The notes under the pieces were generated by a model. It worked only from the letters and a program-made list of their open reading frames with translations. It was not told where the DNA came from and did not search any database. From assembly GCA_050179755.1 (NCBI GenBank), contig JBFXEV010000001.1:1065994-1129993 (forward strand): a stretch of 64,000 bases of DNA, written 5' to 3'. The stretch's first letter is position 1; each line of letters opens with the position of its first letter. This stretch comes from Candidatus Babeliales bacterium (GTDB taxonomy: Bacteria > Babelota > Babeliae > Babelales > JBFXEV01). Position numbers and translations under genes: made by a program. Positions 12,463 through 56,284 of this stretch are shown here, piece after piece.

Positions 12463-12463
12463 T

Positions 12464-13264
12464 ATGAATTCATTAATATTAAAGTATAATGATGGTTTTT
12501 ATCGTTATAATGCATTCCAAATAACGAATGAATTGCTTGATTTGGCTGTGAGTCTGTTAACTACCGAAGAAATATGTACATCGGATTATTATAAAGAATT
12601 TATATACGAATTACCCTATAATACATACTCGGGTAATGCATATTATATGGAAAGAATAGATGATTATATCATTTTGGGTTGTCAATATAGCTTTGAAAGA
12701 GCATATTTGCATTTATATCAATTTGAAAATCTTATGAGTCAATGGCGAAAAGCATATGAAGATAAGCCAACTGAAATGATAATTTCAGTTGATGATAAAA
12801 ATTTTATTATCTCGTATGAAAAAGATAGTAAGAGTATAAAATTAACTTCAACATCAGAATATATAACATCAACATCGTTTTTAAGCGAATATCCTTATGC
12901 TGATAACTATGTTGAAATAGAGCCAATCTATGATGAATTACATGTGTTTGAATCTGATGATCGTAGGTTTAACGTATTTGCTTATTTACTGACAAGCAAT
13001 ATTCCTTCTTCAGATTATGTAGAAAAGTTGCAACAACCTCCTTATGAATATTATGATGATCGGTACTATTTAGCAATTGTTGAAGATAGAATTCTTATCT
13101 ATGATAAAACAATGGAAATAAAAGTATTGCCAGCCTATAATAAATTTCTTGATCTTATGAAACAATGGCCACTAGCAGTACATAAAAAACCAAAACTTAT
13201 TCGTATATATATTGAAAATGACTATGATCTTAAGATTTTTATATTGCAGCCAGTTTCTTTATAA
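12464..13264 (+). CDS. Putative immunity protein with two tandem homologous domains
   Basis: Directly downstream of the toxin; acidic, Tyr-rich, no signal; internal repeat LLT...SDY...PY...YY....D.I.....F..LM.QW.......KP. Confidence 0.7.
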   Translation: MNSLILKYNDGFYRYNAFQITNELLDLAVSLLTTEEICTSDYYKEFIYELPYNTYSGNAYYMERIDDYIILGCQYSFERAYLHLYQFENLMSQWRKAYEDKPTEMIISVDDKNFIISYEKDSKSIKLTSTSEYITSTSFLSEYPYADNYVEIEPIYDELHVFESDDRRFNVFAYLLTSNIPSSDYVEKLQQPPYEYYDDRYYLAIVEDRILIYDKTMEIKVLPAYNKFLDLMKQWPLAVHKKPKLIRIYIENDYDLKIFILQPVSL

Positions 13265-27973: not shown

Positions 27974-28903
27974 CTAAGGCTTAGATTGCATTTTTGGTGA
28001 TGTGGCGATCATTTTATGTATCGTTTGTAAAATAGTAATTTCTAATTCTTTGGCGGCAACTTGCGGGAGCAATTTTTTGCCTAATGTTATCTTACTTTTC
28101 ATTATTGCAGGAATTAATTGTGTGGCAATCAGTAAGGCAACATCTTTACCAAAGATAGTTTTCTTGCCTGGATCATTACAGGGGTTAGTTAAACTAATGA
28201 GTGCCGGAATAATATGCTTAATTTCTTGTGGAGCTAGTGTTGTTGCTAATGCTTTTCTAGTACGTTGGCTTCGCTTTGAGGAAATTTCCAGTAAAGTAGT
28301 GCCCGTGGCATCGGCAGTGTTTATATCAGCGCCAGCTTCAATGAGTATTGGAATCGCTTGCCATACGTCTTTTTTTACTGCTAAAAATAAGGGTGTTTCA
28401 CCGCATCCGTTTGGTGTGTTTACGCGCGCTCCAGAGTTTATGAGTGTTTTTATGCCAGAAAGAGCACATACTCGCACGGCAGCGTGTAATGGCGTATTAA
28501 GCCTTTGATCTTGCGCATTGGGATCAGCACCCCACGCAATTAATATTTGTGGCGTGATTGGACTGGTAGTTGTTTTGCTAGGTGCACTATAAAATGCATA
28601 GTGTAAAGGTGTTGCTCCGCGTAAATCACGAATAGTTGGCTTTGCCCCTGCATCTAAAAGACATTGTGTCTTTACACTATCATTATTGCGGGCTGATTCA
28701 AATAATGAGTTATCCATCAGCCGTCGCTCCTCTGGAGCTTCCGCTACGCCTAAGCTAGAGCATGTCCAGATGGCGTAATTGGTATCACGACGTCCTTCGA
28801 CAAGCTCAGGATGAGCGGATTTTGGCGAAGTCTGATTCATTGCCTTAACTTGCCCTGACAAAATGTAGGCAAGAATGGCTGCTAATTGAAAAAATGGTTT
28901 CAT
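27974..28903 (-). CDS. Secreted ankyrin-repeat protein with in-frame palindromic repeat insertion
   Basis: GATPLHYA, NTPLHAAV, GETPLFLAV; signal ending QVKA-M. Confidence 0.9.
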   Translation of the reverse strand: MKPFFQLAAILAYILSGQVKAMNQTSPKSAHPELVEGRRDTNYAIWTCSSLGVAEAPEERRLMDNSLFESARNNDSVKTQCLLDAGAKPTIRDLRGATPLHYAFYSAPSKTTTSPITPQILIAWGADPNAQDQRLNTPLHAAVRVCALSGIKTLINSGARVNTPNGCGETPLFLAVKKDVWQAIPILIEAGADINTADATGTTLLEISSKRSQRTRKALATTLAPQEIKHIIPALISLTNPCNDPGKKTIFGKDVALLIATQLIPAIMKSKITLGKKLLPQVAAKELEITILQTIHKMIATSPKMQSKP

Positions 28904-31797: not shown

Positions 31798-33219
31798 TTA
31801 AGTCAATTTTTGGTCATTAAATTTACAACGCGCAGATTTAAAGCCCTCTTGATATTCAGGACGCTTGTTTTCTAAATACTTAAAGAGCATTACAGTTGCG
31901 CAGGTAGCTGCGCCAAATATGAGCGTGCCTTTACCGAAAAATGAAAAGCATTTCCAGGCGAAAATGGCCTTCTTTGGTGTTGGTATTTTGTGCATTTGGG
32001 GTGCATATTTAATCAGGTCTGCTGTGGCAAGCAAAACAACGCTCAGGCAAGTTGAACCTACATAAAATGATCCAGCTGCAGTATAAGCAAGCACATCTTG
32101 AACCTTTTCGCTGACAATTGCTTTTTTTATAGTGCCTGTTGCTCTCTGAAAGTGAGTAGGAGTTATTGCATTTTTTATTTTTGTTATTTCTTCTTTACTC
32201 AAACGATTGCAGCTTAAATCAATTTTAATATTTTCAATGTTAGAAAACGTACCATTTTCAATTTTTTCAATTTCATTGCTATGTAGTATAAGACCAAAGC
32301 CTGCAGGCATCTTTTTGAAGTCAATTCTTCTCAAGTAACGCATTTTATTATTTGCAAGATTAAGGCATTGTAAATTAGGAAAAATGGCAAGTAATTGTGG
32401 CAAGTTAACTCTCGTTAATTGATTATCATGCAAATCAAGAAGCGTTACTTCTTGCGGATTAACAACGGATGTAACTTTTTGAATATCAAATAGGCTAGTA
32501 AGTCCTTTACCTGCAAGAATAAGTGCTTTATGTTGGCCCTTTAATGTTATATGCCAGTGATTTGGAAGTTTTACCGTGCAATTTGATGTAATATCATCAG
32601 TACCTATTATTTCTTGAGCAATTAACTTCTCAATTTGTTTACTATATCGTGCAAATAATTCATAGGTACTCATATCTTCTTTAATATTTTCAACTAGCAA
32701 GTTGTAATAATTACAAAGGGCGTGCATGAGAGTTGGTTTTATGGCCAAATATTCTGCGGTGTGTAATAGAGTGCGCGCTGTCTCGGGGCTTTGTAAACTT
32801 ATTTCTTTGGGGTTGTGCACGCACTCAAAAAGTACAGTAAGAGTAGGCGCTGTTAAATCAATTGCGGGATTATCGTAAATATCTTTTTGTGTGTTAGGTG
32901 TTGCAAATGAGAGTGCGCAATCACGGTGTGTTTTAAATTGCTTTTTTAGTATACTTTTGATGAATTCGCTTTTTTGCGCTAATTTTGGTTCAATTTCAAT
33001 AATTTGGTTGTCTGCGCATTTGATTCGTATGTTTGGATTATCAAATCCAAATGTGGTTGGAACAACGCGAGTACCTATTGCAAATGGATTTTTGCCCTGG
33101 CCATATTTTTTTTCAAATACGCGCTTCAAGGCAGTAAGATTTGGGTGTTGCTCCATAGCTTGTATAATGCCTGTACAAAGCAAAAGAGTACTTATAATGG
33201 CTCGTAATGTTTTTTTCAT
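31798..33219 (-). CDS. Secreted leucine-rich-repeat protein with Skp1/POZ-like N-terminal region and C-terminal TMs
   Basis: LDLHDNQL, LNLANNKM, LILHSNEI, IDLSCNRL LRRs; IKCADNQIIEIE...AQKSEFIKSIL and LLHTAEYL resemble Skp1/BTB. Confidence 0.8.
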   Translation of the reverse strand: MKKTLRAIISTLLLCTGIIQAMEQHPNLTALKRVFEKKYGQGKNPFAIGTRVVPTTFGFDNPNIRIKCADNQIIEIEPKLAQKSEFIKSILKKQFKTHRDCALSFATPNTQKDIYDNPAIDLTAPTLTVLFECVHNPKEISLQSPETARTLLHTAEYLAIKPTLMHALCNYYNLLVENIKEDMSTYELFARYSKQIEKLIAQEIIGTDDITSNCTVKLPNHWHITLKGQHKALILAGKGLTSLFDIQKVTSVVNPQEVTLLDLHDNQLTRVNLPQLLAIFPNLQCLNLANNKMRYLRRIDFKKMPAGFGLILHSNEIEKIENGTFSNIENIKIDLSCNRLSKEEITKIKNAITPTHFQRATGTIKKAIVSEKVQDVLAYTAAGSFYVGSTCLSVVLLATADLIKYAPQMHKIPTPKKAIFAWKCFSFFGKGTLIFGAATCATVMLFKYLENKRPEYQEGFKSARCKFNDQKLT

Positions 33220-33544
33220 AATACTCCTATATGGCTTCTGTAAAACCAAATATTATATTTCTAATTGTATATTAAATTTAATATTTGTCAAGCGGATTTG
33301 GTGGGTTAATAGGCGCATTAATGCAGGCTTGACAAGCAGATTTTAAGCGCAGCGGCTTAAGTTGCTTTTTCTTATAGGTTGCCAGACCTGCTAGAGCAGT
33401 TTAAGAGCCTTTACAAAGGGCATTTTTTGGGCAATACTTAACTATATTTATATCATATAAACCTGTTCCTTCTTTAATCTGAAAGCTGATCTTGGTATTG
33501 ACCCAGGGGGCCTATGGCAGAGGAACTTTCAAAGGATACACACC

Positions 33545-33825: not shown

Positions 33826-34896
33826 ATGCAGATTGATTGGAGCAGCCTTCAGTCACGATATCAAGCTATTAATGAGCAATTGATGTCTGGCGATATTGAT
33901 AACCGTAAGCGGTCTGAGCTTCAAAGTGAAGCAAAGCACCTCAAGACGTTACTTGATGCACACACGCATATTCAAGAAGTTGAAAAACAACTTTCTGATG
34001 CCCGTGAGCAAGAAGCTCAAGCTGCTGATCCTGAGTATAAAGAGCTATTTACCCAAGAAATTACCGAACTCTCTGATAAATTACAGGTGGCACAAGATGA
34101 ATTAGAATATCTTATTGTGCCTCCTGATATTATGGATGAACGGTCTGTGTTTCTTGAAGTCCGTGCCGGCGCTGGAGGCAAAGAAGCCTCACTATTTGCC
34201 TCTGATTTGGTGCGTATGTATACCAACTATGCAATTGCCAAGGGTTGGCAAGTTGATCTTGCCGATATGAGCAACACAGAGCTTGGGGGCGTGCGAGAAG
34301 CAACGCTTCACATTCAAGGCAAAGGTGCGTATGCGCATTTAAAAAAAGAAGCTGGCGTGCATCGTGTGCAGCGTGTTCCTAAAACGGAAACGCAAGGTAG
34401 AGTGCATACGTCTACAGCAACTATCGCTGTAATGCCTGAAGCAAAAGAAGTAGATATTGATATTAATCCTGCGGATTTGCGCGTTGATACGTACCGGGCA
34501 AGTGGTGCAGGTGGTCAGCACGTAAATAAAACAGATTCTGCCATTCGTATAACACATATTCCTACGGGCGTAGTGGTTGCGTGCCAAGAAGAACGCTCAC
34601 AACATAAAAATAGAGCTAAAGCTCTTAAAATGCTGCAGTCTCGGTTGCTCCAAGCTGAGCGTGAAAAACAAGAAGCTCTAGAGGCAAAGCAACGCAAAGA
34701 CCAAGTAGGGTCTGCCATGCGTTCTGAAAAAGTGCGCACCTATAACTATCCTCAAAATCGCGTGACCGATCATCAGGTTGAATTGACGCTTAATAAGCTT
34801 GATATGATCATGGAAGGTCAGCTTGATGAAATTGTTGCTGCACTTATGCAGCATGAGCGAGAAGAGCGCAAAAGACTTGCTATTGCAAAGGTATAG
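33826..34896 (+). CDS. prfA: Peptide chain release factor 1
   Basis: [10 protein letters not shown] (PxT), [21 protein letters not shown]. Confidence 0.97.
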
Positions 34897-35010
34897 TCCT
34901 CATCGCTCAGAGCGCTGTGCCCGCCGTAGCCAGCCAAGTTTGAAGACCTGGATTGGCGTAGGCCGGGAGTGTTCTTCAAGCCTTCAGGCTATGACGGATG
35001 TATCGAGGGG
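34897..35010. repeat. GC-rich palindromic repeat cluster after prfA
   Basis: cccgccgtagcc...ggcgtaggccggg; terminal gtatcgaggg is the reverse complement of ccctcgatac at 20840. Confidence 0.7.
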
Positions 35011-35177
35011 TTGCAAAGGTTTAACTACCAATATCTCCTGCTGATGCAGGTTTATAAACCTGACAAATAAACTATCAATATATCTATAAATATCAATATA
35101 TAGATCTAATCGATGTATCCAAAATGTTATATTTAAACCTGTAAATAAAAGTTTTTATAAAAACTTATCAAAAACCC

Positions 35178-35207
35178 TTGCTTATCGAGCTTTCAATAAG
35201 TTATAGT
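35178..35207 (+). promoter_or_regulatory. Candidate sigma70 promoter for the hairpin array
   Basis: TTGCTT-18 nt-TATAGT, placing +1 at about the start of hairpin unit 1. Confidence 0.55.
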
Positions 35208-35210
35208 ATA

Positions 35211-35560
35211 AGTAGGAAGTGGCTTGAAGAGTAGTAACTTGATACAAGTTATGAGATCTCCCAAAAGAGAGGCCTTAAAGTCCACTTCCTACTAAAATTG
35301 ACATATAAGTTGGAGATATTTAAGGTGTTTTTAACTGAGGTTAAAAGGCGAGTGAGTAATCAGCACAGTAAATATCTCCTCTAAATTGGGAAACGTTAAC
35401 AGGCGTTCTTATGCATTTATCTTTAAAAGGAGACAATGAGTAATGAATCTTAAGTGACGTTTCCCTCTAAATTGGGAAACGTAACAGGCGTTCTTATGAA
35501 TTTATCTTTAAAAGGAGACAATACGTAATGAATCTTAAGTGACGTTTCCCTTTATTTTTT
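35211..35560 (+). ncRNA. Candidate ncRNA: array of four end-paired hairpin units
   Basis: Units 35211-35293, 35312-35379, 35388-35465 and 35474-35550, each closed by a 9-12 bp stem; tctaaatt linkers; U-rich tail. Confidence 0.65.
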
Positions 35561-36077
35561 TAAACATTCTAAGCACTGATTGTTCGCGAGTGGGAAGCTC
35601 GCTCATATCTAATTTTATCCAACGTAATTCTTTTGATTCATGATTTTGTATAACTTGCTCATCGCTGGTTACCTGCAATAAAAACCGTATATCATAATGA
35701 TCATGCGCAGGTTCATGTGTGCGCTCAGGGATTTGATGGATATCAATATCAAAAATTTCCAATGAAACCGGCTCAATGCCGCGTATGCCAGATTCTTCTT
35801 GCGCTTCTCTGAGTGCTACTTTGAGTACGTCAGTATCGCCATCACAATGTCCGCCAAGTTGTAGCCACTTATCAAGTTTGGTGTGGTGCAAAAGCAAAGC
35901 ATGCGTGTGAGCTTTATTGAGTATAAATGCAGAGCCTGTAATATGGCCTATTGCAAGCGTACGTTCAAAGCAATTAGCATATGTGTTGATAAACTTGATC
36001 GTACGTTCTTTATATTCAGTTTCTTCATGTGTGGGATGATATGCCGCAAGAAGTTTAAGTAGTTGATTTCTATGCAT
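35535..36077 (-). CDS. NUDIX hydrolase
   Basis: GHITGSA, WLQLGGHCDG..VALREAQEESG Nudix box, HDHYDIRFL. Confidence 0.93.
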   Translation of the reverse strand: MHRNQLLKLLAAYHPTHEETEYKERTIKFINTYANCFERTLAIGHITGSAFILNKAHTHALLLHHTKLDKWLQLGGHCDGDTDVLKVALREAQEESGIRGIEPVSLEIFDIDIHQIPERTHEPAHDHYDIRFLLQVTSDEQVIQNHESKELRWIKLDMSELPTREQSVLRMFKKIKGNVT

Positions 36078-36192
36078 GAAATGTTCCGTATAATGCTTGA
36101 AAAAAGAGCGCACCTTTTAAATTGTTGACTATTGAAACGGCACTGGCCTATGCTTTGTTATGTATAGTATAAGGCACAAAAAAGGGATATCA

Positions 36193-37761
36193 ATGCAAAA
36201 GAGCATAATACGTATTGTAGGAGTGTTAGTTGTTTTATTATCATTGCCAAAAGCGCAAGCAATGTTTGCACTTGATGATGCGTTGTATCAAGCAGCAGCA
36301 CAAGGTGACGTTGCCAAGGTAAACGAGCGGATACAGGCTCATGTAAACATAAACGAGGTAGGCGTTAACAACGGTGATACTGCACTTCATCTTGCGGTGC
36401 GTAATGGACATCTGGCCGTCGTAAATGCTCTTCTTGATGTTAACGTAGATGTTGCTAAAGAAAACCATAAACGCGAAACTCCTTTGAGCATTGCGCGTGA
36501 TGCCTATATAAAAGCTGTGGAGGCTGGTGATTTAGATAAGCAACAAATCTATCTTGATATACTTAATGCGTTTTTAGGTAATAATACTGATACTGATCGA
36601 GATTTATTGCGTCACATAGTTCTTGAAAATATTCCAGGCATAAAAAGAGCGCTTAATCAGGGTGCAAATGCAAATTCACGTGGCAGAGGTCTGCATGGCA
36701 TGATGCCTGTTCATTATGTTATTGCTCATTATCCCGTTGATCGCGTTTTGCCCATGGTAAAACTATTGCTTGAAAAAAATGCAGATAAAAATCAGCAAGA
36801 TGATGATGGCATGACGCCACTTGCTCATGCTACTGTGCGGCGATTACAGGAAGTTGTAGAATACTTGTTAGCGCAAAAAGTAAATGTTGATCAAGCTGAT
36901 AAAACAGGTCAAACGCCCTTACATCATTATGCAGCTCGTGGTGATCTTGAAGGAGTTAATGCTTTGCTGAGTGCGCATGCCAATCCAAATGCTGTAGATC
37001 AATCCAACCAAACGCCGCTCTTTTTTGCTGCAATGCGTGGATATGATGCGGTAGTTGCTGCATTGCTTGCGGCTCAAGCCGATCCCAATGCACAAGCGTC
37101 GGCTTATGCCTATACACAAGATAAAAAAGGTTTGACGGTGGTACAAGTGGCACAAAATTCAAATATCGTTCGTATGCTTGTGGAAAAGGGCGCAAATCCG
37201 CATCAGTTTATGAATCCTACTACCCATGAAACATTATTGCATTATGCAGTAAAAACAGGCGATGCGCAGCTCGTACGCTTATTACTTGAGAAAAATGTTG
37301 ATGTAAATGCGCCAGATCACGTTCTGCGAACGCCCTTGCATTTTATAGTACAGTATGCGAATGTTGCAACTAAGCCAATCGTTTCACTTTTGCTTGCAAA
37401 AGGCGCAAATCCTACATTAGAAAATCTCACTGGTGAAACTCCGATTGATTTTGCACGGCGTGGGCAATTGGCGCTTGCAGGCCGTATACTATCCCGTGGT
37501 GAGTTAGAGCATGAAGATTACGATGCGCTTATTGATGAGCTCACTCATGCAAGTGCGCCTTTTGTTCAAACGGTAAAGACAACAAAACCGTTGCCAGAAA
37601 AGCCTGTAAAACCATTATCAACAAAACCGTTGCCCACTAAACCAACGCAATTGCCGGCAAGTACATGCCCAATAAAGCCAGCATCGCCTCCTGAGCTCCA
37701 AGACGTATTAGAAGATTTAGTACGTGCGCTCGAAAAATTGGAAGATCAAATACGTGCGTAA
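36193..37761 (+). CDS. Secreted ankyrin-repeat protein with Pro/Lys-rich linker and C-terminal amphipathic helix
   Basis: About 10 ANK repeats (GDTALHLA, GMTPLAHA, GQTPLHHY, QTPLFFAA, ETLLHYAV); signal ending KAQA-M. Confidence 0.93.
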   Translation: MQKSIIRIVGVLVVLLSLPKAQAMFALDDALYQAAAQGDVAKVNERIQAHVNINEVGVNNGDTALHLAVRNGHLAVVNALLDVNVDVAKENHKRETPLSIARDAYIKAVEAGDLDKQQIYLDILNAFLGNNTDTDRDLLRHIVLENIPGIKRALNQGANANSRGRGLHGMMPVHYVIAHYPVDRVLPMVKLLLEKNADKNQQDDDGMTPLAHATVRRLQEVVEYLLAQKVNVDQADKTGQTPLHHYAARGDLEGVNALLSAHANPNAVDQSNQTPLFFAAMRGYDAVVAALLAAQADPNAQASAYAYTQDKKGLTVVQVAQNSNIVRMLVEKGANPHQFMNPTTHETLLHYAVKTGDAQLVRLLLEKNVDVNAPDHVLRTPLHFIVQYANVATKPIVSLLLAKGANPTLENLTGETPIDFARRGQLALAGRILSRGELEHEDYDALIDELTHASAPFVQTVKTTKPLPEKPVKPLSTKPLPTKPTQLPASTCPIKPASPPELQDVLEDLVRALEKLEDQIRA

Positions 37762-37844
37762 ATGCTAGGCAAATAAAACAATTTTAATTATACTCCTAAG
37801 CAGTTCGTTTAAAAATATAAACAAAATTGCTTAGGAGTTTTTTC

Positions 37845-39125: not shown

Positions 39126-40994
39126 ATGAAAAAACAAAAGGTAGGTAGCATATGCATGTTGTTGTTACATGTTTCATGGAATTATGCTATGTACATGTCT
39201 GGCGAGCAGGCAAAAAGAATTGCACCACGTTTAGTGGCACGTGGTCAATTGGAGCAAGTTGAAGAGCCAGCTAATTTTAATACATTCAATGGCTATTGGT
39301 TTAAAGCTGAATTGCTAGAGCATCCGGCCATACAAAGGCTTGAGCAACTTGATCAAGTAGTGAAAGATGCGGCGTTAGGTGTTGTGGGTGATCTTTCAAC
39401 AAGGGGAAAGAAGTATCTTGCAGCTTGCGCAATGGCAGCTGGGGCAAATCATGAACAAACATGTGGAAAATTAGTTTCATGGCTTTCTGAAGCAATAGAA
39501 AGAGATGATATTAATTTTGTGGCGACTATGGCGCCTTTTAAGCCTAATCCAAACCGGCGTGAAATGTGCTATAAAGAATCATTTGCGCAAGTGCCACTTT
39601 TTGCGACACCTCGTGTGTTTACCGCAGAAAGAATAGCGCATCATATGGAAATCCCTCTTTTTTTCAAGGTGCAAAGCCCGCAAATGGCTTTATGGCTTTG
39701 GACGCTTAATGCTGATTACACGCAGCGAGGTGGTATAGATGATGGGACGGTGCTTCATCATCTGTGCTCGTTTCCGCCAGAACGGCATAGCGATGCTGCT
39801 GCATTATGCGCATTTTATTTAAAAAAAGGTGCTGATCCCCACGCAGTAGATGCTGTTGGTCGTCTGCCCTTACATTGTATTGCACGTCGCGTGAATAATC
39901 TGAATATCGAGCAATTATTGCCATGTATGCTTCTTATGCTGCGCGCAGGTGCTGATACTGGCCGAAAGGATAATCATGGCATGTCATTTGAAGATTATAT
40001 GCAACGAAGCTTATATAATTCAATTAGTAGTCGAATACAAATTAATGTACTCAATGCATATCAAGAATCGCGAGACAAAAACAAATGCGGGCGAGCTGAA
40101 TACTATACATCATATGAGTCAGATTTGCTGAAAGCAGAAGAGCCTGCATGCTATTGTGAGTGCCTGGAGACTGAACAAACAAGTGAAAGCAAAGACTTAG
40201 ATTTTTTGCGTAGTTGCATAGTAAAAGCGGCTGAAAAGCCATTAGAAAAACGGGTTAATTTTAATTGTAGGGAACTCCAGCAACACCCTGCACTTTCACA
40301 TTGGCGGCCCCTGTTGTTATCTGGCAAGAATTTGGAAGAGCTTTTGCCAGATATGAGGGTAGAAATTTGGCAAGCGGTTGTGGCTTCATTGCTTGATTAT
40401 AATGTGGGACGCACACTTGCCGCATTTTTTGCCATTATTTTGCGTGATGATGCATTTTTGGCACTTGGCGATGCTAACATAGTCATGGAAGATGACTATG
40501 ATGTGACTTCATTCATGTTCCAACATGTCAAACCAAAACCAGATGAATTTTGCACGTGTTTGTCTGCTCGCACTCTGCCTATGGCCAAGCTTTTAAAACG
40601 ATATGGGTATTATACACAATTCGTTGACGCACAAGAGAACACGCCATTTCATTATTTTGCGCGCCATGGCAAGTTGGTAGAGCCCGGACTTATTGATTTT
40701 TATGTAAAAGAAAATGTTGATCCCTGCGCTAAGAACAGTGAGGATCAAACAGCAGCGGACCTATTGGTAGAATATAGTTATCGTTTTGATGGACATGAAG
40801 AAAAATTAGCGGCATTTTTGACCATGTTAAAATTGCATGGTGCAGTGTCTAAACGTGCACATGAAAAAACTGGCAAAACGCTATTAGAAGCTGCGCAAGA
40901 GGCACATAGCGTGTGGGAATTGCCATGCACCGCGTTGGTTGTTACTATGTTGCAAGAATTAGACGGCGAAAAAGAGCAGATTACCAAATTATGA
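39126..40994 (+). CDS. Secreted ankyrin-like protein with two homologous modules
   Basis: DGTVLHHL, GRLPLHCI, ENTPFHYF; each module begins F...EL..HPA(I/L); signal ending WNYA-M. Confidence 0.8.
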   Translation: MKKQKVGSICMLLLHVSWNYAMYMSGEQAKRIAPRLVARGQLEQVEEPANFNTFNGYWFKAELLEHPAIQRLEQLDQVVKDAALGVVGDLSTRGKKYLAACAMAAGANHEQTCGKLVSWLSEAIERDDINFVATMAPFKPNPNRREMCYKESFAQVPLFATPRVFTAERIAHHMEIPLFFKVQSPQMALWLWTLNADYTQRGGIDDGTVLHHLCSFPPERHSDAAALCAFYLKKGADPHAVDAVGRLPLHCIARRVNNLNIEQLLPCMLLMLRAGADTGRKDNHGMSFEDYMQRSLYNSISSRIQINVLNAYQESRDKNKCGRAEYYTSYESDLLKAEEPACYCECLETEQTSESKDLDFLRSCIVKAAEKPLEKRVNFNCRELQQHPALSHWRPLLLSGKNLEELLPDMRVEIWQAVVASLLDYNVGRTLAAFFAIILRDDAFLALGDANIVMEDDYDVTSFMFQHVKPKPDEFCTCLSARTLPMAKLLKRYGYYTQFVDAQENTPFHYFARHGKLVEPGLIDFYVKENVDPCAKNSEDQTAADLLVEYSYRFDGHEEKLAAFLTMLKLHGAVSKRAHEKTGKTLLEAAQEAHSVWELPCTALVVTMLQELDGEKEQITKL

Positions 40995-41593: not shown

Positions 41594-42433
41594 ATGAGAA
41601 AATTATGTATCCTTGTGTTATTGATTTTTGGGGTGATGCATGCAATGGACCATGAAGAACCGCAAGGATCGTCTTATCAAGAAGAGAAAACCTCTGAATT
41701 CAATAATCCTCTGTATGGACTCAAATGGGTTCGAGGCTGCCATGAGCAAAAGCTGCGTGAAAAATTAGACGCAGACTCGTTCCAACAAATGCTTGCTTGC
41801 CCGCGTATTATGCGCGATTCCGGATATGGAAAACTAAAAGATTGTATTGAACGTCATGATACAAAGCGCGTAGCGCAATTATTAGTGGCAGGTTGTGATC
41901 CTGATGGCAGTAGATCTCTTTTTGAAGATAAAAAGTTACAGATATATCTTGACGGTGTTGAAATGAAAGAGCCTGAGCAAGCTCCTGTGCCATCCCCCTT
42001 ATTTTTGGCATGTCAAAAAGGCGCTGTTCACTGTGCACGGCTGCTTCTTAAGCATGGTGCAGATCCTGATGGTCCGGGTCTTTTTAAGCGAACTCCTTTG
42101 CATGCAGTGTGTACGCACCCACTTTCTTTTTTAGAGTCAAGTCGTGAGCTTGTTATGTTGTTATTAGCGTTTGGTGCTACTATAGAAGCGCGTGATATTA
42201 GTGAACAAACTGCGGTTGATTGTGCCGATGGAAATCCTGATTTCTTACAATTTTTACGTGCAAGTATAGAAGAAGCTAAGAAAGTGCCATTTGATGTTCT
42301 TACGCACAGAGCACAAAAAAAGAAAGAGCGGGAGGCAATAATTAGAGAACTAATAGAGAAGTGGCAAAAAGATTCTCATAGCAGTTTTGGTTGCAGCAGT
42401 TCAGGCGGTGGTATGCGTGCACTATTAATGTAA
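41594..42433 (+). CDS. Secreted ankyrin-repeat protein
   Basis: SPLFLAC..G...ARLLLKHGADP, RTPLHAV; signal ending VMHA-M. Confidence 0.88.
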   Translation: MRKLCILVLLIFGVMHAMDHEEPQGSSYQEEKTSEFNNPLYGLKWVRGCHEQKLREKLDADSFQQMLACPRIMRDSGYGKLKDCIERHDTKRVAQLLVAGCDPDGSRSLFEDKKLQIYLDGVEMKEPEQAPVPSPLFLACQKGAVHCARLLLKHGADPDGPGLFKRTPLHAVCTHPLSFLESSRELVMLLLAFGATIEARDISEQTAVDCADGNPDFLQFLRASIEEAKKVPFDVLTHRAQKKKEREAIIRELIEKWQKDSHSSFGCSSSGGGMRALLM

Positions 42434-42524
42434 TTAAAGAGTAATTATGTATTCTTGCGCAATGTCTTGTGGTCATGTTACGCTGGTGATGTGGGGTATA
42501 CAGTTATAAAAAGGGAGGCATGTA

Positions 42525-42731
42525 ATGAAGAAAGCACTTTTATTTTTGATGGTGGCTGCGTTATTGATTGTAGGTTTATTAAAAATAACGCGAGCATTTA
42601 ATGTTGAGCATAAGATCAAGCAAGATGTTAAACCTTGGTTGGTGCAATCGCAAGATAATCGTGATCCAAAGGATGTAAATTCCAGTGCCGAATCGCGCAA
42701 GCGGCGGAGAGAAGATCAATTACAACGATAG
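42525..42731 (+). CDS. Small exported hypothetical protein
   Basis: GGGAGG RBS, MKK + hydrophobic segment. Confidence 0.65.
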   Translation: MKKALLFLMVAALLIVGLLKITRAFNVEHKIKQDVKPWLVQSQDNRDPKDVNSSAESRKRRREDQLQR

Positions 42732-42849
42732 TTACATGTTTTAATTAAAGATTTTTATCTTTGAGTGATATTGTTTAAATTATTTGGTGAGCTATTCTTT
42801 TACGGGGTAGCTCGTTTTTTTATGTAAGATATTTTTTTTAGGTATAATT

Positions 42850-44091
42850 ATGCAGAAACGGTTTTTATTTATCGTAGCACATACGCTTTTTTTTGTTGTA
42901 CGTTCAATGGATAATCCAGTAGATCCAGCAGTTCTGGAAATGCATACAGGTATCGCAAAATTAGAAGTCGATCGCGTTAAACATGCGTTAGCACAGGGTG
43001 CAGATGTGTGGGCGGTCGATGAGAGAGGTGATACTTTTTTGCATCATATTGTATATCGTGCCGAGCGGTGCAATGAGCAGCAGCAGCAAGAACTTGTAAT
43101 TCCTATAATGCAGGTACTGCTCGATGCTGGAGCACTTGTAAATGCTGTAAATAGTATAGGAGTTGTTCCTTTGCATGCGGCAGTATATCAAGACGCAAAG
43201 TACATTATAGATTGCCTGCGTAAGCAAGGCGCAGACGATACGATAAAAGACAACCAGGGGCGAGGATTGCTTGATATCAGCTTACATGGTTGGAAGTGCC
43301 GTCGCTTGCTTACTGCTGCTAGTATTGAGGAAATGCAACAACTTTTAGAAGAGGGTGCAAATCCTGACGGCGCGCGTAATAGGCAAGGATTTGCATTACA
43401 TCATGCAGTGCAAAAGTTGGATTGGGAAAAAGTTCAATTACTGTTGTATCATGGTGCAAACGCAAATGCGCAAGCAGCTGGTGGCAAAACACCACTGCAT
43501 CATTTAGTTGAAGTAACTTCTCTTTATTGTGAGCAGGAGGGAGAGGTATTTGACCTGGCTCAATTGCTTGTGGAATATGCAGCAGACGTAGATGCAGTAG
43601 ATGTGTTTGGTAATGCTGCATTACATTTTGCAGCAGAAAAAATGTTAGGAAATTGGCTTATTTTTTTGTTGCTTCATAACGCACGTTTAGTCGTTAAAAA
43701 TAAAGCAGGGCAGACGCCTTTGCATTGTTTATTTCAAAATAATATGTTAAACAAGAATCAACGCGGATTTGTACAAAATATTTTGCTAATTGCTGCCCGT
43801 AATCAAATCAAAGCGATTGTGCCTCAAGAATATTCATTCGATGAGCTCGTTGCAATTTTTTTGGAAACAATAAGAGCATCAGTGGGCACAGGAGATGCGA
43901 GCGGCAGAACTTTGATGCAGCTTAGTAACAGTAATAGTATCTCTTCTTTGGTTGATCCATGTTTAATTACAGAAAATTTTTATGATGATGCCGTAACTTT
44001 TTGTGCGGGCCTTAGGCAAGATCATGTGCATGATGTTGCTTTTAAGAGTCGCAAAGATCAAAAATTAAAGCCACTGCGCAAGTCAAGGTAA
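42850..44091 (+). CDS. Secreted ankyrin-repeat protein
   Basis: GDTFLHH, VVPLHAAV, GKTPLHH, GNAALHFA, GQTPLHC; signal ending VVRS-M. Confidence 0.9.
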   Translation: MQKRFLFIVAHTLFFVVRSMDNPVDPAVLEMHTGIAKLEVDRVKHALAQGADVWAVDERGDTFLHHIVYRAERCNEQQQQELVIPIMQVLLDAGALVNAVNSIGVVPLHAAVYQDAKYIIDCLRKQGADDTIKDNQGRGLLDISLHGWKCRRLLTAASIEEMQQLLEEGANPDGARNRQGFALHHAVQKLDWEKVQLLLYHGANANAQAAGGKTPLHHLVEVTSLYCEQEGEVFDLAQLLVEYAADVDAVDVFGNAALHFAAEKMLGNWLIFLLLHNARLVVKNKAGQTPLHCLFQNNMLNKNQRGFVQNILLIAARNQIKAIVPQEYSFDELVAIFLETIRASVGTGDASGRTLMQLSNSNSISSLVDPCLITENFYDDAVTFCAGLRQDHVHDVAFKSRKDQKLKPLRKSR

Positions 44092-44096
44092 TGATA

Positions 44097-44720
44097 TTAA
44101 GTAATTTGGGTGACTTGTATACCTTTGCCAAGTCTTTCTAAAAGCTGTTGTACGGCAGCAGCATTTTGGCATCTAATAGCGAGTTGTGGCCGATTCTGTG
44201 CAAGCCGTGCGCCATGCTTCAGCAACCATTCTATCATGGCAAGTTGTTTAATTTGATCTATGCCGGGTAGCCCTTTCAACGCACATTCAAGTGGCGTCAT
44301 GCCAAAAGGTGTTTCATGATTAAGTTCAGCCCCTGCGTCTTGTAATGCTTGTGCCATTGCAATATTGCCTGATCGTGCAGCTTTAAAAATTGGTGTTTCG
44401 CCTAAATAATTACGCGCATTGGCATCTGCTTTTAGAGCGAGCAGGTGCGTTACAACTATCAATCGTTCTTGCGCTGCTGCTTGATGCAACGGAGGAGATG
44501 CATGGCCATGTTGCGTAATATCAGCAAACGTGGCAAGTCTGGTAATCTCAGTAAGATCGCCTTTTGCAATAGCTGGAATAAGTGCATACTGCGCGTCAGT
44601 TTTTATAGGAAAATCAAATATAGTTTTTTTGGTACCATATGTTGCTGGGTGGTCATACATGCCAATTAGATTACATGCGTAGAATATGAGTGTGCTTAGC
44701 AAGAGTGTATGTACAAACAT
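44097..44720 (-). CDS. Secreted ankyrin-repeat protein
   Basis: PPLHQAA, GETPIFKAA, GMTPLECA; signal ending NLIG-M. Confidence 0.88.
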   Translation of the reverse strand: MFVHTLLLSTLIFYACNLIGMYDHPATYGTKKTIFDFPIKTDAQYALIPAIAKGDLTEITRLATFADITQHGHASPPLHQAAAQERLIVVTHLLALKADANARNYLGETPIFKAARSGNIAMAQALQDAGAELNHETPFGMTPLECALKGLPGIDQIKQLAMIEWLLKHGARLAQNRPQLAIRCQNAAAVQQLLERLGKGIQVTQIT

Positions 44721-44935
44721 AATAAGGATTCCTTGTGGTAATGCTGGTTGCTTGTAGCAGATACTATAGCACACTAAAAATGTAAGTATACCATGTATAA
44801 TTGTTGGAATTGTGCGTGCTCGTAGTACGCATCTTTTATGTGTTATATTTGCTAATAGTCAACGTTTGTATATACTATGTAAGGTACTTTTGTAGGGCAA
44901 GAGGCACTGTTATAAAATTGTCTTGATGGAATCGC

Positions 44936-45499
44936 ATGCAAAAATTTATATTTCTCCTTTTATGGGCACAGCTGGCGAGCGTTTTTTTTGGGTCTGCTAT
45001 GCAGTCAATAAAAGCAATGAGCCGTTCAGCTTCTCAGCCTAGCATGATACGTAAATCTCCTATTCCTAAAGGTCAAATAAATAAGCCCGATAACGAAGGG
45101 AACGCTCGGCTGCATCTTGCCGTGTTAGATGGTAATTCAATGAGAGCAAAAGAATTGCTAACAGAAGAAGCAGAAGAAGCTAATCCAAATGTAGAACAAT
45201 CGCTCAGTAAAAGAACACCTTTGCATTTAGCTGCTAATCATAAAACTAAGCCAAAAAAATCTTTGAACATTGCTAAGTTATTGCTATTTCATGGTGCAAC
45301 AGTTGATCCGGTAGATAGTAAAAAAAGAACGCCATTGCATTATGCTTGCAGAAGAGGCAGAAGAGAAATGGTCTTTTTGTTGCTTTCAGCGGGCGCAAAA
45401 ACTGACGTTATAGATATCGTTGGAAAAACCCCCCGAGATCTTGATGAAAGCCAATTAATCAGGGCGTATGAAGAGTCATTGACCAAGCAAGAAAAGTAA
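44936..45499 (+). CDS. Secreted ankyrin-repeat protein
   Basis: GNARLHLAV, RTPLHLAA, RTPLHYAC. Confidence 0.9.
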   Translation: MQKFIFLLLWAQLASVFFGSAMQSIKAMSRSASQPSMIRKSPIPKGQINKPDNEGNARLHLAVLDGNSMRAKELLTEEAEEANPNVEQSLSKRTPLHLAANHKTKPKKSLNIAKLLLFHGATVDPVDSKKRTPLHYACRRGRREMVFLLLSAGAKTDVIDIVGKTPRDLDESQLIRAYEESLTKQEK

Positions 45500-45790
45500 T
45501 ATAAGGGCAAGCGATTTTTGCGTAATGATGCCTTAGCGAAGAGTAAAATTGTTAATGCTAGTACGGTAAATGAATAACTGAGCAAAGTTGTGGTTTAAAA
45601 ATAACGTTCTTGCACTTAGAATTCTTCACACCATTTTCCCAAAACCCTCTACTTACATCAGTAAATTTGATATGTCATCAAGCAATAATTGTCTAATTGT
45701 AACTTTTTGTGAAAATGGGTACGTTAACCAAAAAGCCATTCTTTGGTACTCTTATACTATTGAGCATCCATTAAAGAATAAGGGGTATCT

Positions 45791-46396
45791 ATGGTTTCTA
45801 AAATTCGTGTGAAAAATTCAACAACGTTCTTAGTTCTTTCGTTAGTGATTCTAGCAGGTATGGTGGCTTCTCGTACCGTTTCCTTTAATGGTAATTGTGG
45901 TGCGATTAATACCTGCGCTGAAGGCAGACCATTTTCTTTTTCAGGTTCTGCAAAGATAGCAGACAAAACAATACCGTCTTTGAGTGGCGCGGGATCGGCA
46001 ACACTTAAAGATGTTATCGTGCAAGGTGCAGCCAAGCACAGTGGTTCGTTCAAGGCCGAAGGCGGCAGTTTTGGTAGCTTAAAAGTCAGTGGCGCTGTAA
46101 CGCTTAGTGAAACGTCTGTTGCAGGAAAAACAAAAATATCAGGTTGTCTTGATGGCAAAAAGACTACCTTTGCTGCTATTGAAATTGCTTCGAATAAAAG
46201 TGTTTTAACTGAATGTACTGCGGCTTCTATTGCCGTAAAGGCTTCTAGTTGGCCTATCGTTTCACCAATACTTGAATTAGATGGCACTACAGTTCTTGGT
46301 GATATTACTTTTGAAGGCACTGAAGGCCAAGTTATCATGCGCAATGGTGCTGTTGTTAAAGGTAACATAAGCAACGGAGTAATTGTTCAGGGTTAA
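45791..46396 (+). CDS. Membrane-anchored beta-solenoid (bactofilin-like) protein
   Basis: N-terminal TM then (I/V)xGx repeats, ending GAVVKGNISNG; paralog at 47244. Confidence 0.65.
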   Translation: MVSKIRVKNSTTFLVLSLVILAGMVASRTVSFNGNCGAINTCAEGRPFSFSGSAKIADKTIPSLSGAGSATLKDVIVQGAAKHSGSFKAEGGSFGSLKVSGAVTLSETSVAGKTKISGCLDGKKTTFAAIEIASNKSVLTECTAASIAVKASSWPIVSPILELDGTTVLGDITFEGTEGQVIMRNGAVVKGNISNGVIVQG

Positions 46397-46520
46397 TGCG
46401 TAGAGCGTAGCCTAGCCAGGATAATAGATTAAAATAATAACGTCTTGTGCAAAATGTTTGAGCGAGCTATTCTTAAATTGAATAGTTCGCTTTTTTAATT
46501 GTGTAAAAGGAGATAAGCAT

Positions 46521-47225
46521 ATGAAAATAGCCTTAGTGGTGTTGATGCTTAGCGTATGTGGTAGTGCGTATAGCATGAAAGATAGCATAAATAAAAGGAG
46601 CCCACTTTTTGATGCAATTGATAAGGGGCAAGCAGAGCAAGTAAAAGAATCAGCTAAAAATCGTGATTTATTGGAGGAAAAGGATGATATTGGGCGTACT
46701 CCTTTGCAGTACGCAGTCTGTGTTTATCCCGAAAAATTGGCGATCGTTAGCGCACTTCTTGAATGTGGCGCAAATGTTAATAGTAAAGACCTTAATGGCT
46801 ATACTGTGTTGCATTTTGTTGAATTGGAAGATCTTGCACGATTGCTTCTTGATCATGGAGCGCAGTTGCTGTCCGATGGTTTTGGCAATACGCCAGTTCA
46901 TAGTGCGGCCTGGGCAGGTCATACTGGCATTGTTCGCGTATTGCTTACCCATGTTACACCGGCAGATATTCCTGCAGATAGTCACAAGGCCCAAAAGAAA
47001 GAGGTTATAGAGAATATAATCAAAAGAAAATTAGAAGCTGCACGGCATTGGCTTGCAACAGGCAATATGTTTAGTGAAAATCCACATGCTTATGCAGGAT
47101 CACGCGGCGCCATTTCTTTTGGAGGAGAATCTGAACTGTCTCGTTTGATTGATGGTGCGCATATAGAGGGACTGAGAGAATGCATCCGGCAAAGTGCAAG
47201 TAAGGTTTTAAGTAAAAGAAATTGA
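46521..47225 (+). CDS. Secreted ankyrin-repeat protein
   Basis: GRTPLQYAV, GYTVLHF, GNTPVHSAA; signal ending SAYS-M. Confidence 0.9.
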   Translation: MKIALVVLMLSVCGSAYSMKDSINKRSPLFDAIDKGQAEQVKESAKNRDLLEEKDDIGRTPLQYAVCVYPEKLAIVSALLECGANVNSKDLNGYTVLHFVELEDLARLLLDHGAQLLSDGFGNTPVHSAAWAGHTGIVRVLLTHVTPADIPADSHKAQKKEVIENIIKRKLEAARHWLATGNMFSENPHAYAGSRGAISFGGESELSRLIDGAHIEGLRECIRQSASKVLSKRN

Positions 47226-54843: not shown

Positions 54844-55878
54844 TCAAAATTGCTGTAGAAAATTTACTTTCGCGCTATGCAGCAAGCGAATGTCATTGAT
54901 ACCGTATTTAAGCATAGCCAGGCGTGTGATACCAAAACCAAAAGCAAAGCCGCTATATACTGTTGGATCAATATTTACACTTTTGAGTACGTGAGGGTGA
55001 ATCATGCCCGCGCCAGCAATTTCAATCCAGCGAGATTGTTTGCAAGTTGCGCAACCATTTGAACAGAATGGGCATGACATACAAATATCAAGGCCAGGTT
55101 CTACAAACGGGAAATAGCTGGGTCCAACGCGAATTTCCAATTTTTTGTCTTCAAAAATAGCTTGTAAAAATGTTTTTACCGTAGCAAGTAAATTGCTTAC
55201 TGATACATTCTTATCAATAAATAATCCTTCAAGTTGCATAAACACAAAATCATGCGATGCATCTGTAGCTTCGTGTCTATAGCATCTACCGGGAGCAATT
55301 ACTGCAAGAGGTAATTCATGTTGTTCCATGGCATGCACTTGCACAGGAGACGTATGTGTTCTTAATAATAAATCAGGGACATTTAGATAAAAAGTATCCC
55401 ACATATCACGTGCAGGGTGATCGGCAGGAATATTTAGTGCTTCAAAATTATAAAAGGTTGTTTCAACTTCTGGACCATCTGCAATGCGATACCCCATAGA
55501 GATAAAGACGTCTTCTATATGATCAACAATTTGCGTAATAGGGTGTATGCTGCCTGAAAGTGTGCCGGGCGTATAAGAAGTAACATCAAAATACTGCTGT
55601 TTTTTTAATTCTTCTTGAACGCTAAGTACATCTAAAGCTTTAAGTTTTTGGTCAAATGATGCTGTAAGCTCTTCTTTAAGTGCATTAAGAAGCGGTCCCA
55701 TTTCTCGTTTTTCTTCGACTGATGCATTTTTAAGGTGGCCCATCAGCTCTGTAAGGGTGCCTTGGCGCCCCAGATAGGTCACGCGAACTGCTTCAAGAGC
55801 ACTTGCATCTTGAGCTGCTGCGAGCGCATTATTAAAGGCTTTTTTTGTATTGGTTATTAATTCTTTAAGAGATTTCAT
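54844..55878 (-). CDS. pheS: Phenylalanine--tRNA ligase alpha subunit
   Basis: NFEALNIPADHPARDMWDTFY, LLRTHTSPVQ, YFPFVEP, GFAFGFG. Confidence 0.98.
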   Translation of the reverse strand: MKSLKELITNTKKAFNNALAAAQDASALEAVRVTYLGRQGTLTELMGHLKNASVEEKREMGPLLNALKEELTASFDQKLKALDVLSVQEELKKQQYFDVTSYTPGTLSGSIHPITQIVDHIEDVFISMGYRIADGPEVETTFYNFEALNIPADHPARDMWDTFYLNVPDLLLRTHTSPVQVHAMEQHELPLAVIAPGRCYRHEATDASHDFVFMQLEGLFIDKNVSVSNLLATVKTFLQAIFEDKKLEIRVGPSYFPFVEPGLDICMSCPFCSNGCATCKQSRWIEIAGAGMIHPHVLKSVNIDPTVYSGFAFGFGITRLAMLKYGINDIRLLHSAKVNFLQQF

Positions 55879-55904
55879 AAATTCCCTGCGGGTGTTGTTG
55901 ATGC

Positions 55905-56047
55905 AGTGAGTTTACCAAACAAAATGGTGATGAGCAAGCAATATAGGTCCGCCGTCGCGCTTACTGCGCTATGGCGTGACACTCTACGCCTTAGCTCTAA
56001 AGGAGCGGCGGCGAGTGAGTTTACCAAACAAAATGGTGATGAGCAAG
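55905..56047. repeat. Palindromic element flanked by a 34-bp exact direct repeat
   Basis: agtgagtttaccaaacaaaatggtgatgagcaag at 55905-55938 and 56014-56047. Confidence 0.9.
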
Positions 56048-56096
56048 GATCGAGGCTAGTAAACCTGCGGTAACGTGTTTGTTGGATGAAAAAACG

Positions 56097-56129
56097 TTGA
56101 CAAAAGAACAGGGGCGGGTATGATATATA
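56097..56129 (+). promoter_or_regulatory. tRNA-Phe promoter
   Basis: TTGACA (56097) with TATGAT at 16 nt, plus extended TGn-TATAAT (56121-56129). Confidence 0.7.
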
Positions 56130-56146
56130 ACATATTTTTAAGTAAT

Positions 56147-56221
56147 GCCGAGGTAGCTCAGTGGTAGAGCGTAAGCCTGAAGAGCTTAGCGTCGGGGGTT
56201 CAATTCCCTCTCTCGGCACCA
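56147..56221 (+). tRNA. tRNA-Phe (GAA)
   Basis: GCCGAGG acceptor stem, anticodon arm taagc-ctGAAga-gctta, GGTTCAATTCC T-arm, encoded CCA. Confidence 0.97.
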
Positions 56222-56284
56222 CTCGCCTACGCTCCGTAGGAGCTACGGCGTAGTGCCACGCCATAGCGCTTTGCGCGACGGCGG
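56220..56284. repeat. Palindromic element, inverted copy of 55949..56017
   Basis: Reverse complement ccgccgtcgcgc-aaa-gcgctatggcgtggcactacgccgtagctcctacggagcgtaggcgagtg closely matches the upstream copy. Confidence 0.85.

Follow-up and report, generated by a model that had tools for sequence, protein, structure and literature searches.

A promoter-led array of self-closing RNA modules in a Candidatus Babeliales genome, very probably a noncoding RNA gene of an undescribed family

We analysed a stretch of 64,000 nucleotides (nt) of DNA from a Candidatus Babeliales bacterium (the window), in which a gene-free stretch between prfA (33826-34896) and a convergent gene for a NUDIX hydrolase carries an array of four consecutive units, U1 to U4, each closed by the pairing of its own ends. 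No open reading frame (ORF) of at least 60 amino acids (aa) was found in the array, except the end of the convergent NUDIX gene. To obtain a relative for comparison, prfA was searched against the GTDB representatives, and only one close genome was found, a metagenome-assembled genome of Candidatus Babeliales/Dependentiae whose 21-kb locus is called L001 here. Its prfA is 89% identical to that of the window, while the next loci reach at most 58% and come from unrelated phyla. The features at the array, with what they share with L001, are the following.

35149 to 35166, no strand assigned: palindrome AAGTTTTTATAAAAACTT, 18 base pairs (bp) and perfect (arms 100% complementary), its centre about 57 nt 5' of the likely transcription start
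35170 to 35183, plus strand: block AAAAACCCTTGCT(T) with the -35-like hexamer; AAAAACCCTTGCT is the same in the window and in L001
35178 to 35183, plus strand: -35-like hexamer TTGCTT, matching the sigma-70 -35 consensus at 3 of 6 positions
35202 to 35207, plus strand: -10-like hexamer TATAGT, separated from TTGCTT by an 18-nt spacer; GTTATAGTATAAGTAGGAAGTG is the same in both genomes
35211 to 35550, plus strand: the whole array of four end-paired units, with closing arms of 11-12 nt
35211 to 35293, plus strand: U1, Y-shaped, with a closing stem, hairpin A (TAACTTG-ATA-CAAGTTA) and hairpin B (TCTC-CCAAAA-GAGA)
35294 to 35311, plus strand: U1-U2 linker AAAATTGACATATAAGTT, A/U-rich and unpaired in the global fold
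35312 to 35379, plus strand: U2, with an 11-bp closing stem, a helix GTGT/GCAC, hairpin A (TTTTAAC-TGAG-GTTAAAA) and the invariant strand TGAGTAATCAGCACA
35380 to 35387, plus strand: linker TCTAAATT (tctaaatt, 8 nt); the L001 counterpart, after U2 there, is ATTAAATT
35388 to 35465, plus strand: U3, rod-shaped, with the closing stem GGGAAACGTTA/TGACGTTTCCC and the inner helix GTTCTTAT / GTAA-T-GAAT
35437 to 35454, plus strand: a micro-ORF within U3, with an ATG start
35466 to 35473, plus strand: linker TCTAAATT again, inside an 85-nt tandem duplication
35474 to 35550, plus strand: U4, the last module and a recent copy of U3, with a G+C-rich basal helix and then a T-run
35551 to 35561, plus strand: T-rich tract TTTATTTTTTT, directly 3' of the last closing stem; the L001 equivalent is TTTTTCTATTCTTC
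35535 to 36113, minus strand: the convergent NUDIX hydrolase gene (Pfam NUDIX, E 6.6e-10)

The promoter spacer is 18 nt in L001 as well, and the closing stem of the L001 U1 starts, in its predicted fold, at the base equivalent to 35213; we infer a transcription start at about 35213-35215. The upstream palindrome AAGTTTTTATAAAAACTT is partly kept in L001, where AAGTTTTT and TAAAAA were retained and the outer CTT was lost, and it is possibly a regulator site. The U1-U2 linker of L001 is shorter (AAAAATTGAAAAATT), and in the window the heptamer tataagt lies 5' of both U1 and U2. A repeat search identified U3 and U4 as the 85-nt tandem duplication, U4 differing from U3 by a 1-nt deletion and three substitutions, and in the folds these substitutions move one pair rather than lose one (C-G gone, G-C gained). 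The motifs TTAAAAGGMGA and AGGYGTTYTTA each have three exact copies in the 64-kb window, all of them in U2, U3 and U4. The basal helix of U4 together with the T-run behind it is likely a terminator. A first-pass annotation of this DNA had described the promoter, the units, the linkers, the repeated tataagt, the T-run and the micro-ORF, and all of them were found in place; the ends of each unit pair in the predicted folds as it had proposed, and the inner hairpins that it drew in U1 and U2 are present in minimum free energy (MFE) or consensus folds. One of these, the tga-GTAA-tca hairpin of U2, has 3 bp and never varies, so the comparison gives no test of that hairpin.

Since other genes directly follow prfA in L001, simple synteny failed, and the array of the relative was located by a covariance model. 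The homologous locus has the same promoter block AAAAACCCTTGCT, the 18-nt spacer and GTTATAGTATAAGTAGGAAGTG, followed by five units.

12742 to 12824 of L001: U1 ortholog, 84.5% identical
12836 to 12903 of L001: U2 ortholog, 85.3% identical without gaps
12912 to 12983 of L001: Ua, an extra U2-like unit
12993 to 13070 of L001: Ub, an extra U2-like unit
13088 to 13173 of L001: U3-type last unit, 64% identical to U3, with a T-rich tract after it

Thus the unit order U1, U2, ..., U3-type is the same in both genomes, with four units in the window and five in L001, and the inner helix of the L001 U3-type unit is an unbroken 8 bp (GTTCTTAT/GTAAGAAC). The segment made up of the promoter, U1 and U2 is 82.7% identical between the two genomes (167/202), which compares with 80.3% for prfA over all positions and 55.7% at its third codon positions, 71% for the NUDIX gene and 52.7% for the non-coding DNA farther upstream. 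This pattern of identity indicates that the array is under purifying selection at least equal to that on an essential gene.

The changes that did occur mostly respect the pairing. Among the 27 consensus pairs of U1, 26 are unchanged and none is broken, the remaining one being a compensatory change from U-A to C-G within hairpin A; hairpin B and the junction strands of U1 are invariant between the genomes. The 24 consensus pairs of U2 include one compensatory change (TTTTAAC/GTTAAAA to TTTCAAC/GTTGAAA) and one wobble, and the loop of its hairpin A changed from TGAG to TTCG in L001 with the stem retained. Ua and Ub, aligned with each other, have 17 pairs with one compensatory and three one-sided changes, and the trio of U3-type units has 23 pairs with one compensatory and four one-sided changes. 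The covariation is thin per helix, yet it is consistent over the four alignments. The closing stems were counted directly by position, and over the first 11 positions of the seven U2/U3-type units, 72 of 77 cells are paired, with at least two standard pair types at positions 2-8, 10 and 11. Seven of these cells are G·U and none is A·C, and therefore the pairing suits a plus-strand RNA only. Two other alignments were left unused for pair counts: a MAFFT alignment of the four units or of U2-U4, in which the closing stems fell out of register, and the alignment A10 of a second covariance model (R2, below), which included minus-strand self-matches of the palindromic U2.

To assess the folds, the single units of the window were scored against 200 dinucleotide shuffles and whole stretches against 100. 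The first-pass annotation had pointed to folding of each unit, and all four folded end-closed and below their shuffles (z -3.8 to -5.1). The MFE values were -31.5, -20.1, -23.8 and -21.3 kcal/mol for U1, U2, U3 and U4, with z of -5.13, -4.59, -3.86 and -3.82, respectively; as good a fold was reached by 2 of 200 shuffles for U3 and by 0 of 200 for each of the other three. The whole 361-nt stretch of the window gave a z of -5.67 (0/100 shuffles as good). In L001 all five units fold end-closed (z -3.26 to -4.73), and the complete transcript folds into five separate modules (z -6.19, 0/100 shuffles). Summed over the nine units of both genomes, the MFE is -213.8 on the plus strand, with 34 G·U pairs, versus -168.7 on the minus strand, with 12, and the plus strand folds better in seven of the nine.

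Two covariance models, R1 built from U3 and U4 and R2 built from the two U2 orthologs, were used to determine how the units are related. On the window, R1 detected U2 (22.8 bits, E 0.0056; best outside the array 16.2), and on L001 it detected 13080-13173 (24.6 bits, E 6.7e-4; best outside that array 15.1). R2 detected Ub, Ua, U4 and U3 with 26.5, 22.2, 18.4 and 15.7 bits, respectively, and its best score elsewhere in the 85 kb of the two loci was 13.1. In 480,724 bases of 30 unrelated loci, R2 reached at best 12.9 bits and R1 gave no match. On these scores the U2/U3-type units are homologous despite their exchanged closing stems, as the first-pass annotation had held; its idea that a relative should carry homologous units was borne out too, with the promoter, U1, U2 and the U3-type unit orthologous and bearing compensatory changes. 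U1 was not found above noise (R1 9.8 bits, R2 none listed) and is a separate unit type. Its architecture is that of Ua and Ub: inside the closing stem come hairpin A, a short joiner and then hairpin B, which has 4 bp and a loop of six bases. Within the invariant core of U1, positions 35256-35263 hold a perfect 8-nt palindrome, GAGATCTC, which as RNA could allow U1-U1 intermolecular pairing in place of hairpin B.

No known family could be recognised, in agreement with the first-pass annotation: the array matched no Rfam, tRNA or tmRNA model. Rfam 15, run over the whole window at the gathering threshold, reported only a tRNA at 56147-56218. With the array searched at E up to 10, the scores were 24.3 bits against a threshold of 100, 17.9 (mt-tmRNA) against 65 and 10.6 against 50; for the L001 array the best was 23.1 bits against a gathering threshold of 54, from a plant miRNA precursor model, which is a noise-level match that reflects only the GGGAG...CTCCC stem. 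ARAGORN found no tRNA or tmRNA in the array and, in the window, only tRNA-Phe at 56147-56221. In short-word blastn each unit matched the array only, in the 64-kb window and the 21-kb L001 locus, and distant blastn against a plasmid collection gave no match to the array. A CRISPR was considered and rejected, the sole long direct repeat being the 85-nt U3/U4 duplication, in which the would-be spacers are near-identical too.

Taken together, the sequences show conservation, compensatory change, strand-specific pairing and what looks like a promoter of its own, all of them general hallmarks of a structured noncoding RNA. It is highly likely that the locus is a real plus-strand noncoding RNA gene, and, judged by sequence, very probably one of an undescribed family.

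Several points weigh against this reading. The promoter agrees with its consensus at only 8 of 12 positions and is absent from the output of a promoter scan, which itself found 5 promoter-like sites compared with 5.2 in shuffles, and a terminator scan made no call at the end of U4. The pair U9-A60 of the U2 closing stem is G/G, thus broken, in L001, and 5 of the 23 pairs in the U3 trio are lost in one sequence apiece. For the two copies of U1, the minus strand gives a slightly lower folding energy (-32.6 versus -31.5, and -25.8 versus -23.9). In the global MFE fold of the window, U3 and U4, being near copies, pair with each other and form a single long alternative hairpin. The comparison covers two genomes, the window and L001, so an ortholog pair has a single compensatory change and most pairs never vary and are uninformative; and the search for further copies spans 85 kb, so that a low-copy dispersed family is possible.

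As for how such a gene would work, the best explanation that we can give, taken whole from promoter to protein-read modules, has in our estimate a somewhat better than even chance. A sigma-70-like promoter would start a plus-strand transcript at about 35213-35215, about 345 nt long in the window and about 440 nt in the relative. Each of its modules would fold on its own into a Y- or rod-shaped unit of 68-86 nt with a closing end helix of 9-12 bp. The last unit, in both genomes of the GGGAAAC...GTTTCCC type and with a U-run after it, would end transcription. All linkers finish with AAATT, AAGTT or AAAAT, and the G-rich 5' arm of the following module comes next. Because these A/U-rich linkers are the only extended single strands, a cut is most likely there, and a single-strand endonuclease cutting them would release stem-closed small RNAs of 68-86 nt with both ends protected. 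Processing into separate units of this kind is, to our mind, an even bet. RNase Y and RNase P are named among the ribonucleases of another member of the phylum in the portion of its genome report used here (PMC6561590).

Hairpin A tolerates variation in its loops and tops, and the closing stems do so in their middle; the invariant parts are ATGAGATCTCCCAAAAGAGAGGCCTTAAAG in U1 and, in the U2 type, RAGTAAT...CAGCA, which is common to U2, Ua and Ub. The invariant junction and hairpin B strands would then be the working surface of the modules, and the stems and hairpin A loops would not. A protein would read these invariant strands, making the product a ribonucleoprotein or a titrating RNA whose dose would be set by the module count, with modules gained through tandem duplication. 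Constraint on the junction sequence, together with a module number that varies by duplication, suggests protein recognition. That the RNA acts mainly by binding protein is a tentative assignment, to which we give somewhat less than an even chance.

The convergent gene next to the array deserves description before the alternatives are weighed. The last 16 nt of the window NUDIX gene, stop codon included, overlap the 3' arm of U4. The window NUDIX is 73% identical (129/176) to that of L001 (13206-13739, minus strand), which is likewise convergent and lies 32 nt past the L001 array. The L001 protein is about 5 residues shorter at the C-terminus, which means that the C-terminal GNVT of the window protein is read from U4; GNVT is also the end of a spurious minus-strand ORF of 23 aa that lies in U4 and has its stop in the identical 3' arm of U3. 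The closest solved relative of the window NUDIX is 3fcm (E 7e-21), an unnamed NUDIX hydrolase, and no NCBIfam equivalog was matched, leaving a generic NUDIX hydrolase; therefore no functional link to the RNA can be drawn from it.

On the other side, the interval between prfA and the array in L001 holds a RelB-like ORF, stop-interrupted ParE-like fragments and an ankyrin gene. The RelB-like antitoxin ORF (Pfam E 3.5e-6) and then the ParE-like toxin fragments with stops occupy 11095-11600, the last 53 aa of the ParE-like part matching at Pfam E 2.2e-4, just under the family threshold, and the ankyrin gene occupies 11689-12543; by its sequence this segment looks like an insertion relative to the window. 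In the window, positions 34897-35045, right after the prfA stop, have a G+C content of about 45-50%, compared with about 28-35% in the remaining spacer. This piece has no L001 counterpart, no Pfam match for the ORF crossing it and no significant fold (z -1.40), and it may be the remnant of a lost gene. Positions 35023-35108, which lie 100-190 nt 5' of the array promoter, contain a 14-nt direct repeat (AACTATCAATATAT type) in triplicate as well as an imperfect palindrome of 13 nt; these elements are not kept in L001 and could be protein-binding sites.

Given these observations, other explanations of the array were weighed. The first-pass annotation had suggested that AAAAGGAGA, which resembles a Shine-Dalgarno (SD) sequence, makes the units decoys for CsrA or the ribosome, or that the micro-ORF codes, and this we consider very unlikely. 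Each of U2, U3 and U4 in the window does carry two A-rich GG motifs, and the centre of U3 resembles a ribosome-binding site with a start codon, enough to match a phage one; that match (38 nt, 92%, in the ribosome-binding-site region of one Acinetobacter phage under two accessions) was set aside as chance. AAAAGGAGA, however, is a stem strand in U2 that co-varies and is not kept as sequence in L001, where the U2 motif TTAAAAGG reads TTGAAAGG with the compensatory change of TTTTAAC to TTTCAAC, and where the U3-type unit reads GAACGGAGT, its first AGG being AAG. MFE and consensus folding both place the AGG/GGA motifs in stems or junctions, with none in a hairpin loop, and Rfam gave no Csr/Rsm match even at E up to 10. 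An unconserved stem strand, GG motifs outside loops and no Csr/Rsm match weaken the decoy reading. No RNA-binding regulator family was matched among the 49 ORFs of at least 120 aa or among the array neighbours, small ORFs being outside that scan. The ATG of the micro-ORF is ACG in U4 and has no L001 counterpart. A small protein gene was also rejected: a single frame runs open across U2 in both genomes, and its 10 differing codons include 0 synonymous ones, with substitutions of 3/8/1 by codon position; the U1 orthologs differ by indels 1 nt and 2 nt long. What stood of the earlier description is therefore the promoter-led structured RNA array, undispersed in 85 kb, while the decoy and micro-ORF ideas were not supported. 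Even less credence is given to the idea that the units are DNA-level palindromes, remnants of miniature inverted-repeat transposable elements (MITEs) or protein-binding sites, without RNA function. Inverted repeats of 9-12 bp do bound each unit, and the same 8 bp stand on both flanks of U3 like a target-site duplication, but that 8-bp flank is part of the 85-nt tandem duplication; the terminal repeats differ and the interiors are conserved, the reverse of mobile elements; the closing stems, with 7 G·U and 0 A·C, are strand-specific; no other copy occurs in the 85 kb; and the locus is orthologous and under purifying selection.

The main alternative, which we still regard as unlikely, is that the units are trans-acting base-pairing small RNAs whose invariant single strands serve as seeds for mRNAs, for example at ribosome-binding sites, with the paralogs giving redundancy or several targets. 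Invariant unpaired stretches in U1 and U2 would fit this, and the 3' arms of the closing stems, all of them pyrimidine-rich (TCTCC, TTCCC, CTCTC, CTCCC), would complement purine-rich ribosome-binding sites, but those arms are locked in helices of 9-12 bp. Over 58 start regions, the best duplexes of U2 (-21.7) and U3 (-20.5) did not exceed the means of shuffled sequences (-23.4 and -22.8). U1 gave a duplex of -30.8 kcal/mol with the start of the ORF at 30338 (minus strand), the best of 8 shuffled-U1 controls being -27.6, a match that rests on those 8 shuffles and on about 4% of the genome. This ORF encodes an ABC permease. Between its start region ATGGGGAATCTCATG and ATGAGATCTCCC, an invariant stretch of U1, the complementarity is interrupted by a single bulge, and the match is probably due to chance. 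An uncut RNA of about 345-440 nt, a scaffold whose domains would be the modules, is a possibility that we hold a little less doubtful. It would agree with one conserved promoter and one terminal U-run, with neither a promoter nor a terminator between units, and with the order U1, U2, ..., U3-type common to both genomes. Yet the module number is 4 in one genome and 5 in the other and whole modules were duplicated or exchanged, which fits independent units better than a fixed architecture, and the predicted fold of L001 contains no long-range pairs that join modules. It is also rather improbable that the array serves the convergent Nudix gene, as a stack of hairpins that stops both transcripts or as an antisense RNA to the 3' end of the Nudix mRNA controlling its stability. 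Nudix is the only conserved neighbour and lies directly past the last module in both genomes, the insertions between prfA and the array in L001 contrast with the kept Nudix side, and the last module of the window overlaps the Nudix stop codon; since the minus strand has no U-run behind the hairpins, transcription of Nudix probably continues into the array. The last module alone would suffice as a terminator or antisense, however, which leaves a dedicated conserved promoter unexplained; the strongest conservation is in U1 and U2, farthest from Nudix; and the structures are specific to the plus strand.

Returning to processed modules, a far more speculative extension, which we think very improbable, is that they leave the bacterium as stem-closed hairpin RNAs of about 70-85 nt and are handed to the small-RNA machinery, or to an RNA-binding protein, of a protist host. 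The only grounds for this host-directed reading are how large the modules are and what form they take, their layout on one transcript, and the life of the lineage inside host cells, the last as described in abstracts. If it were true, the array would be a polycistronic cluster of hairpins, encoded in a bacterial genome, by which an obligate intracellular parasite exerts RNA interference across kingdoms. Less extreme would be a new ribonucleoprotein specific to Babeliales and built on the invariant junction strands.

Dependentiae/Babeliales are a large and almost uncultured lineage of intracellular protist parasites, associated with amoebae. In a compact genome of this kind, a conserved RNA gene with its own promoter offers a handle on post-transcriptional control or on interaction with the host. 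Its layout is unusual for bacteria, with one promoter, four to five divergent self-closing modules and gains by duplication, and since stems were exchanged while the junction sequences were kept, it makes a clean test case for modular RNA evolution. If the array merely encodes a lineage-specific small RNA of ordinary function, it would be a modest addition to the catalogues of RNA families. For one Dependentiae genome, the part of the report that we drew on lists only housekeeping RNAs, namely SRP RNA, RNase P RNA and tmRNA (PMC6561590), and among the records seen on noncoding or small RNA in Dependentiae/Babeliales, no regulatory-RNA paper was found.

Pfam scans showed many genes with ankyrin or leucine-rich repeats in the window, with ankyrin genes at 27974-28903, 36160-37761, 39126-40994 and 41594-47225 and a leucine-rich-repeat protein at 31798-33249. 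Abundance of both repeat types is typical of Babeliales/Dependentiae. Several of the ankyrin genes gave sub-threshold matches to models of Legionella Dot/Icm ankyrin effectors, because of shared repeats only. The only ribonuclease seen in the window is a YicC-like endoribonuclease gene at 61284-62174 (minus strand), with the Pfam N and C domains; YicC acts on a small RNA in E. coli. A 14-nt inverted repeat at 37792-37838 (ACTCCTAAGCAGTT / AATTGCTTAGGAGT, 93% complementary), between an ankyrin gene and a NupC-type transporter gene, overlaps the predicted transporter start and may be a terminator or a regulatory hairpin. At 55875-56264 (minus strand), a 129-aa ORF lies over the tRNA-Phe gene (56147-56221, plus strand) and is probably spurious.

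The array was then compared with known systems, and it lacked the defining traits of every family for which these could be checked. LhrC1-4 of Listeria, PrrF1/PrrF2 of Pseudomonas and Qrr of Vibrio are clusters whose small RNAs each come with a separate promoter and terminator. Like them, the array places related RNAs of about 70-100 nt side by side between genes, with copy number changing through tandem duplication; unlike them, it has one promoter and one U-run for four to five self-closed units joined by linkers of 8-18 nt, and no sequence or Rfam match connects it to any of the three. The Csr/Rsm RNAs are defined by many GGA motifs exposed in hairpin loops. The array resembles CsrB, RsmY and RsmZ in being modular, with repeated hairpin units whose number varies between species, and a titrating role is our preferred guess; it differs in that its GG motifs lie in stems and junctions and are not kept as sequence, and in lacking an Rfam match.

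Other likenesses concern the layout. Polycistronic tRNA operons likewise have one promoter and a row of end-closed modules of 70-85 nt with short cleavable spacers, but the array modules are Y- or rod-shaped, with closing stems of 9-12 bp and no cloverleaf. Type III toxin-antitoxin loci (ToxI) consist of near-identical repeats of about 34-40 nt, with the gene of the toxin, an endoribonuclease, following on the same strand. ToxI arrays share with the present one the promoter-led tandem RNA units and the terminator after them, and ToxI is cut into monomers; the units here, in contrast, are 68-86 nt long and divergent (only U3 and U4 are near-identical), and the next gene is the convergent NUDIX. 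Miniature inverted-repeat elements are also units of 70-85 bp bounded by inverted repeats, whereas in the array, unlike in MITEs or repetitive extragenic palindromic (REP) elements, the termini vary and the interiors are kept, pairing is specific to one strand, the single locus has its ortholog in L001 and no copy lies elsewhere in the 85 kb. Eukaryotic miRNA clusters, too, carry several hairpins of about 70-80 nt on one transcript, but the organism here is a bacterium, and U1, U2, Ua and Ub are branched. The array is closest in kind to paralogous small-RNA clusters and modular titrating RNAs, and in layout to tRNA operons, type III arrays and miRNA clusters.

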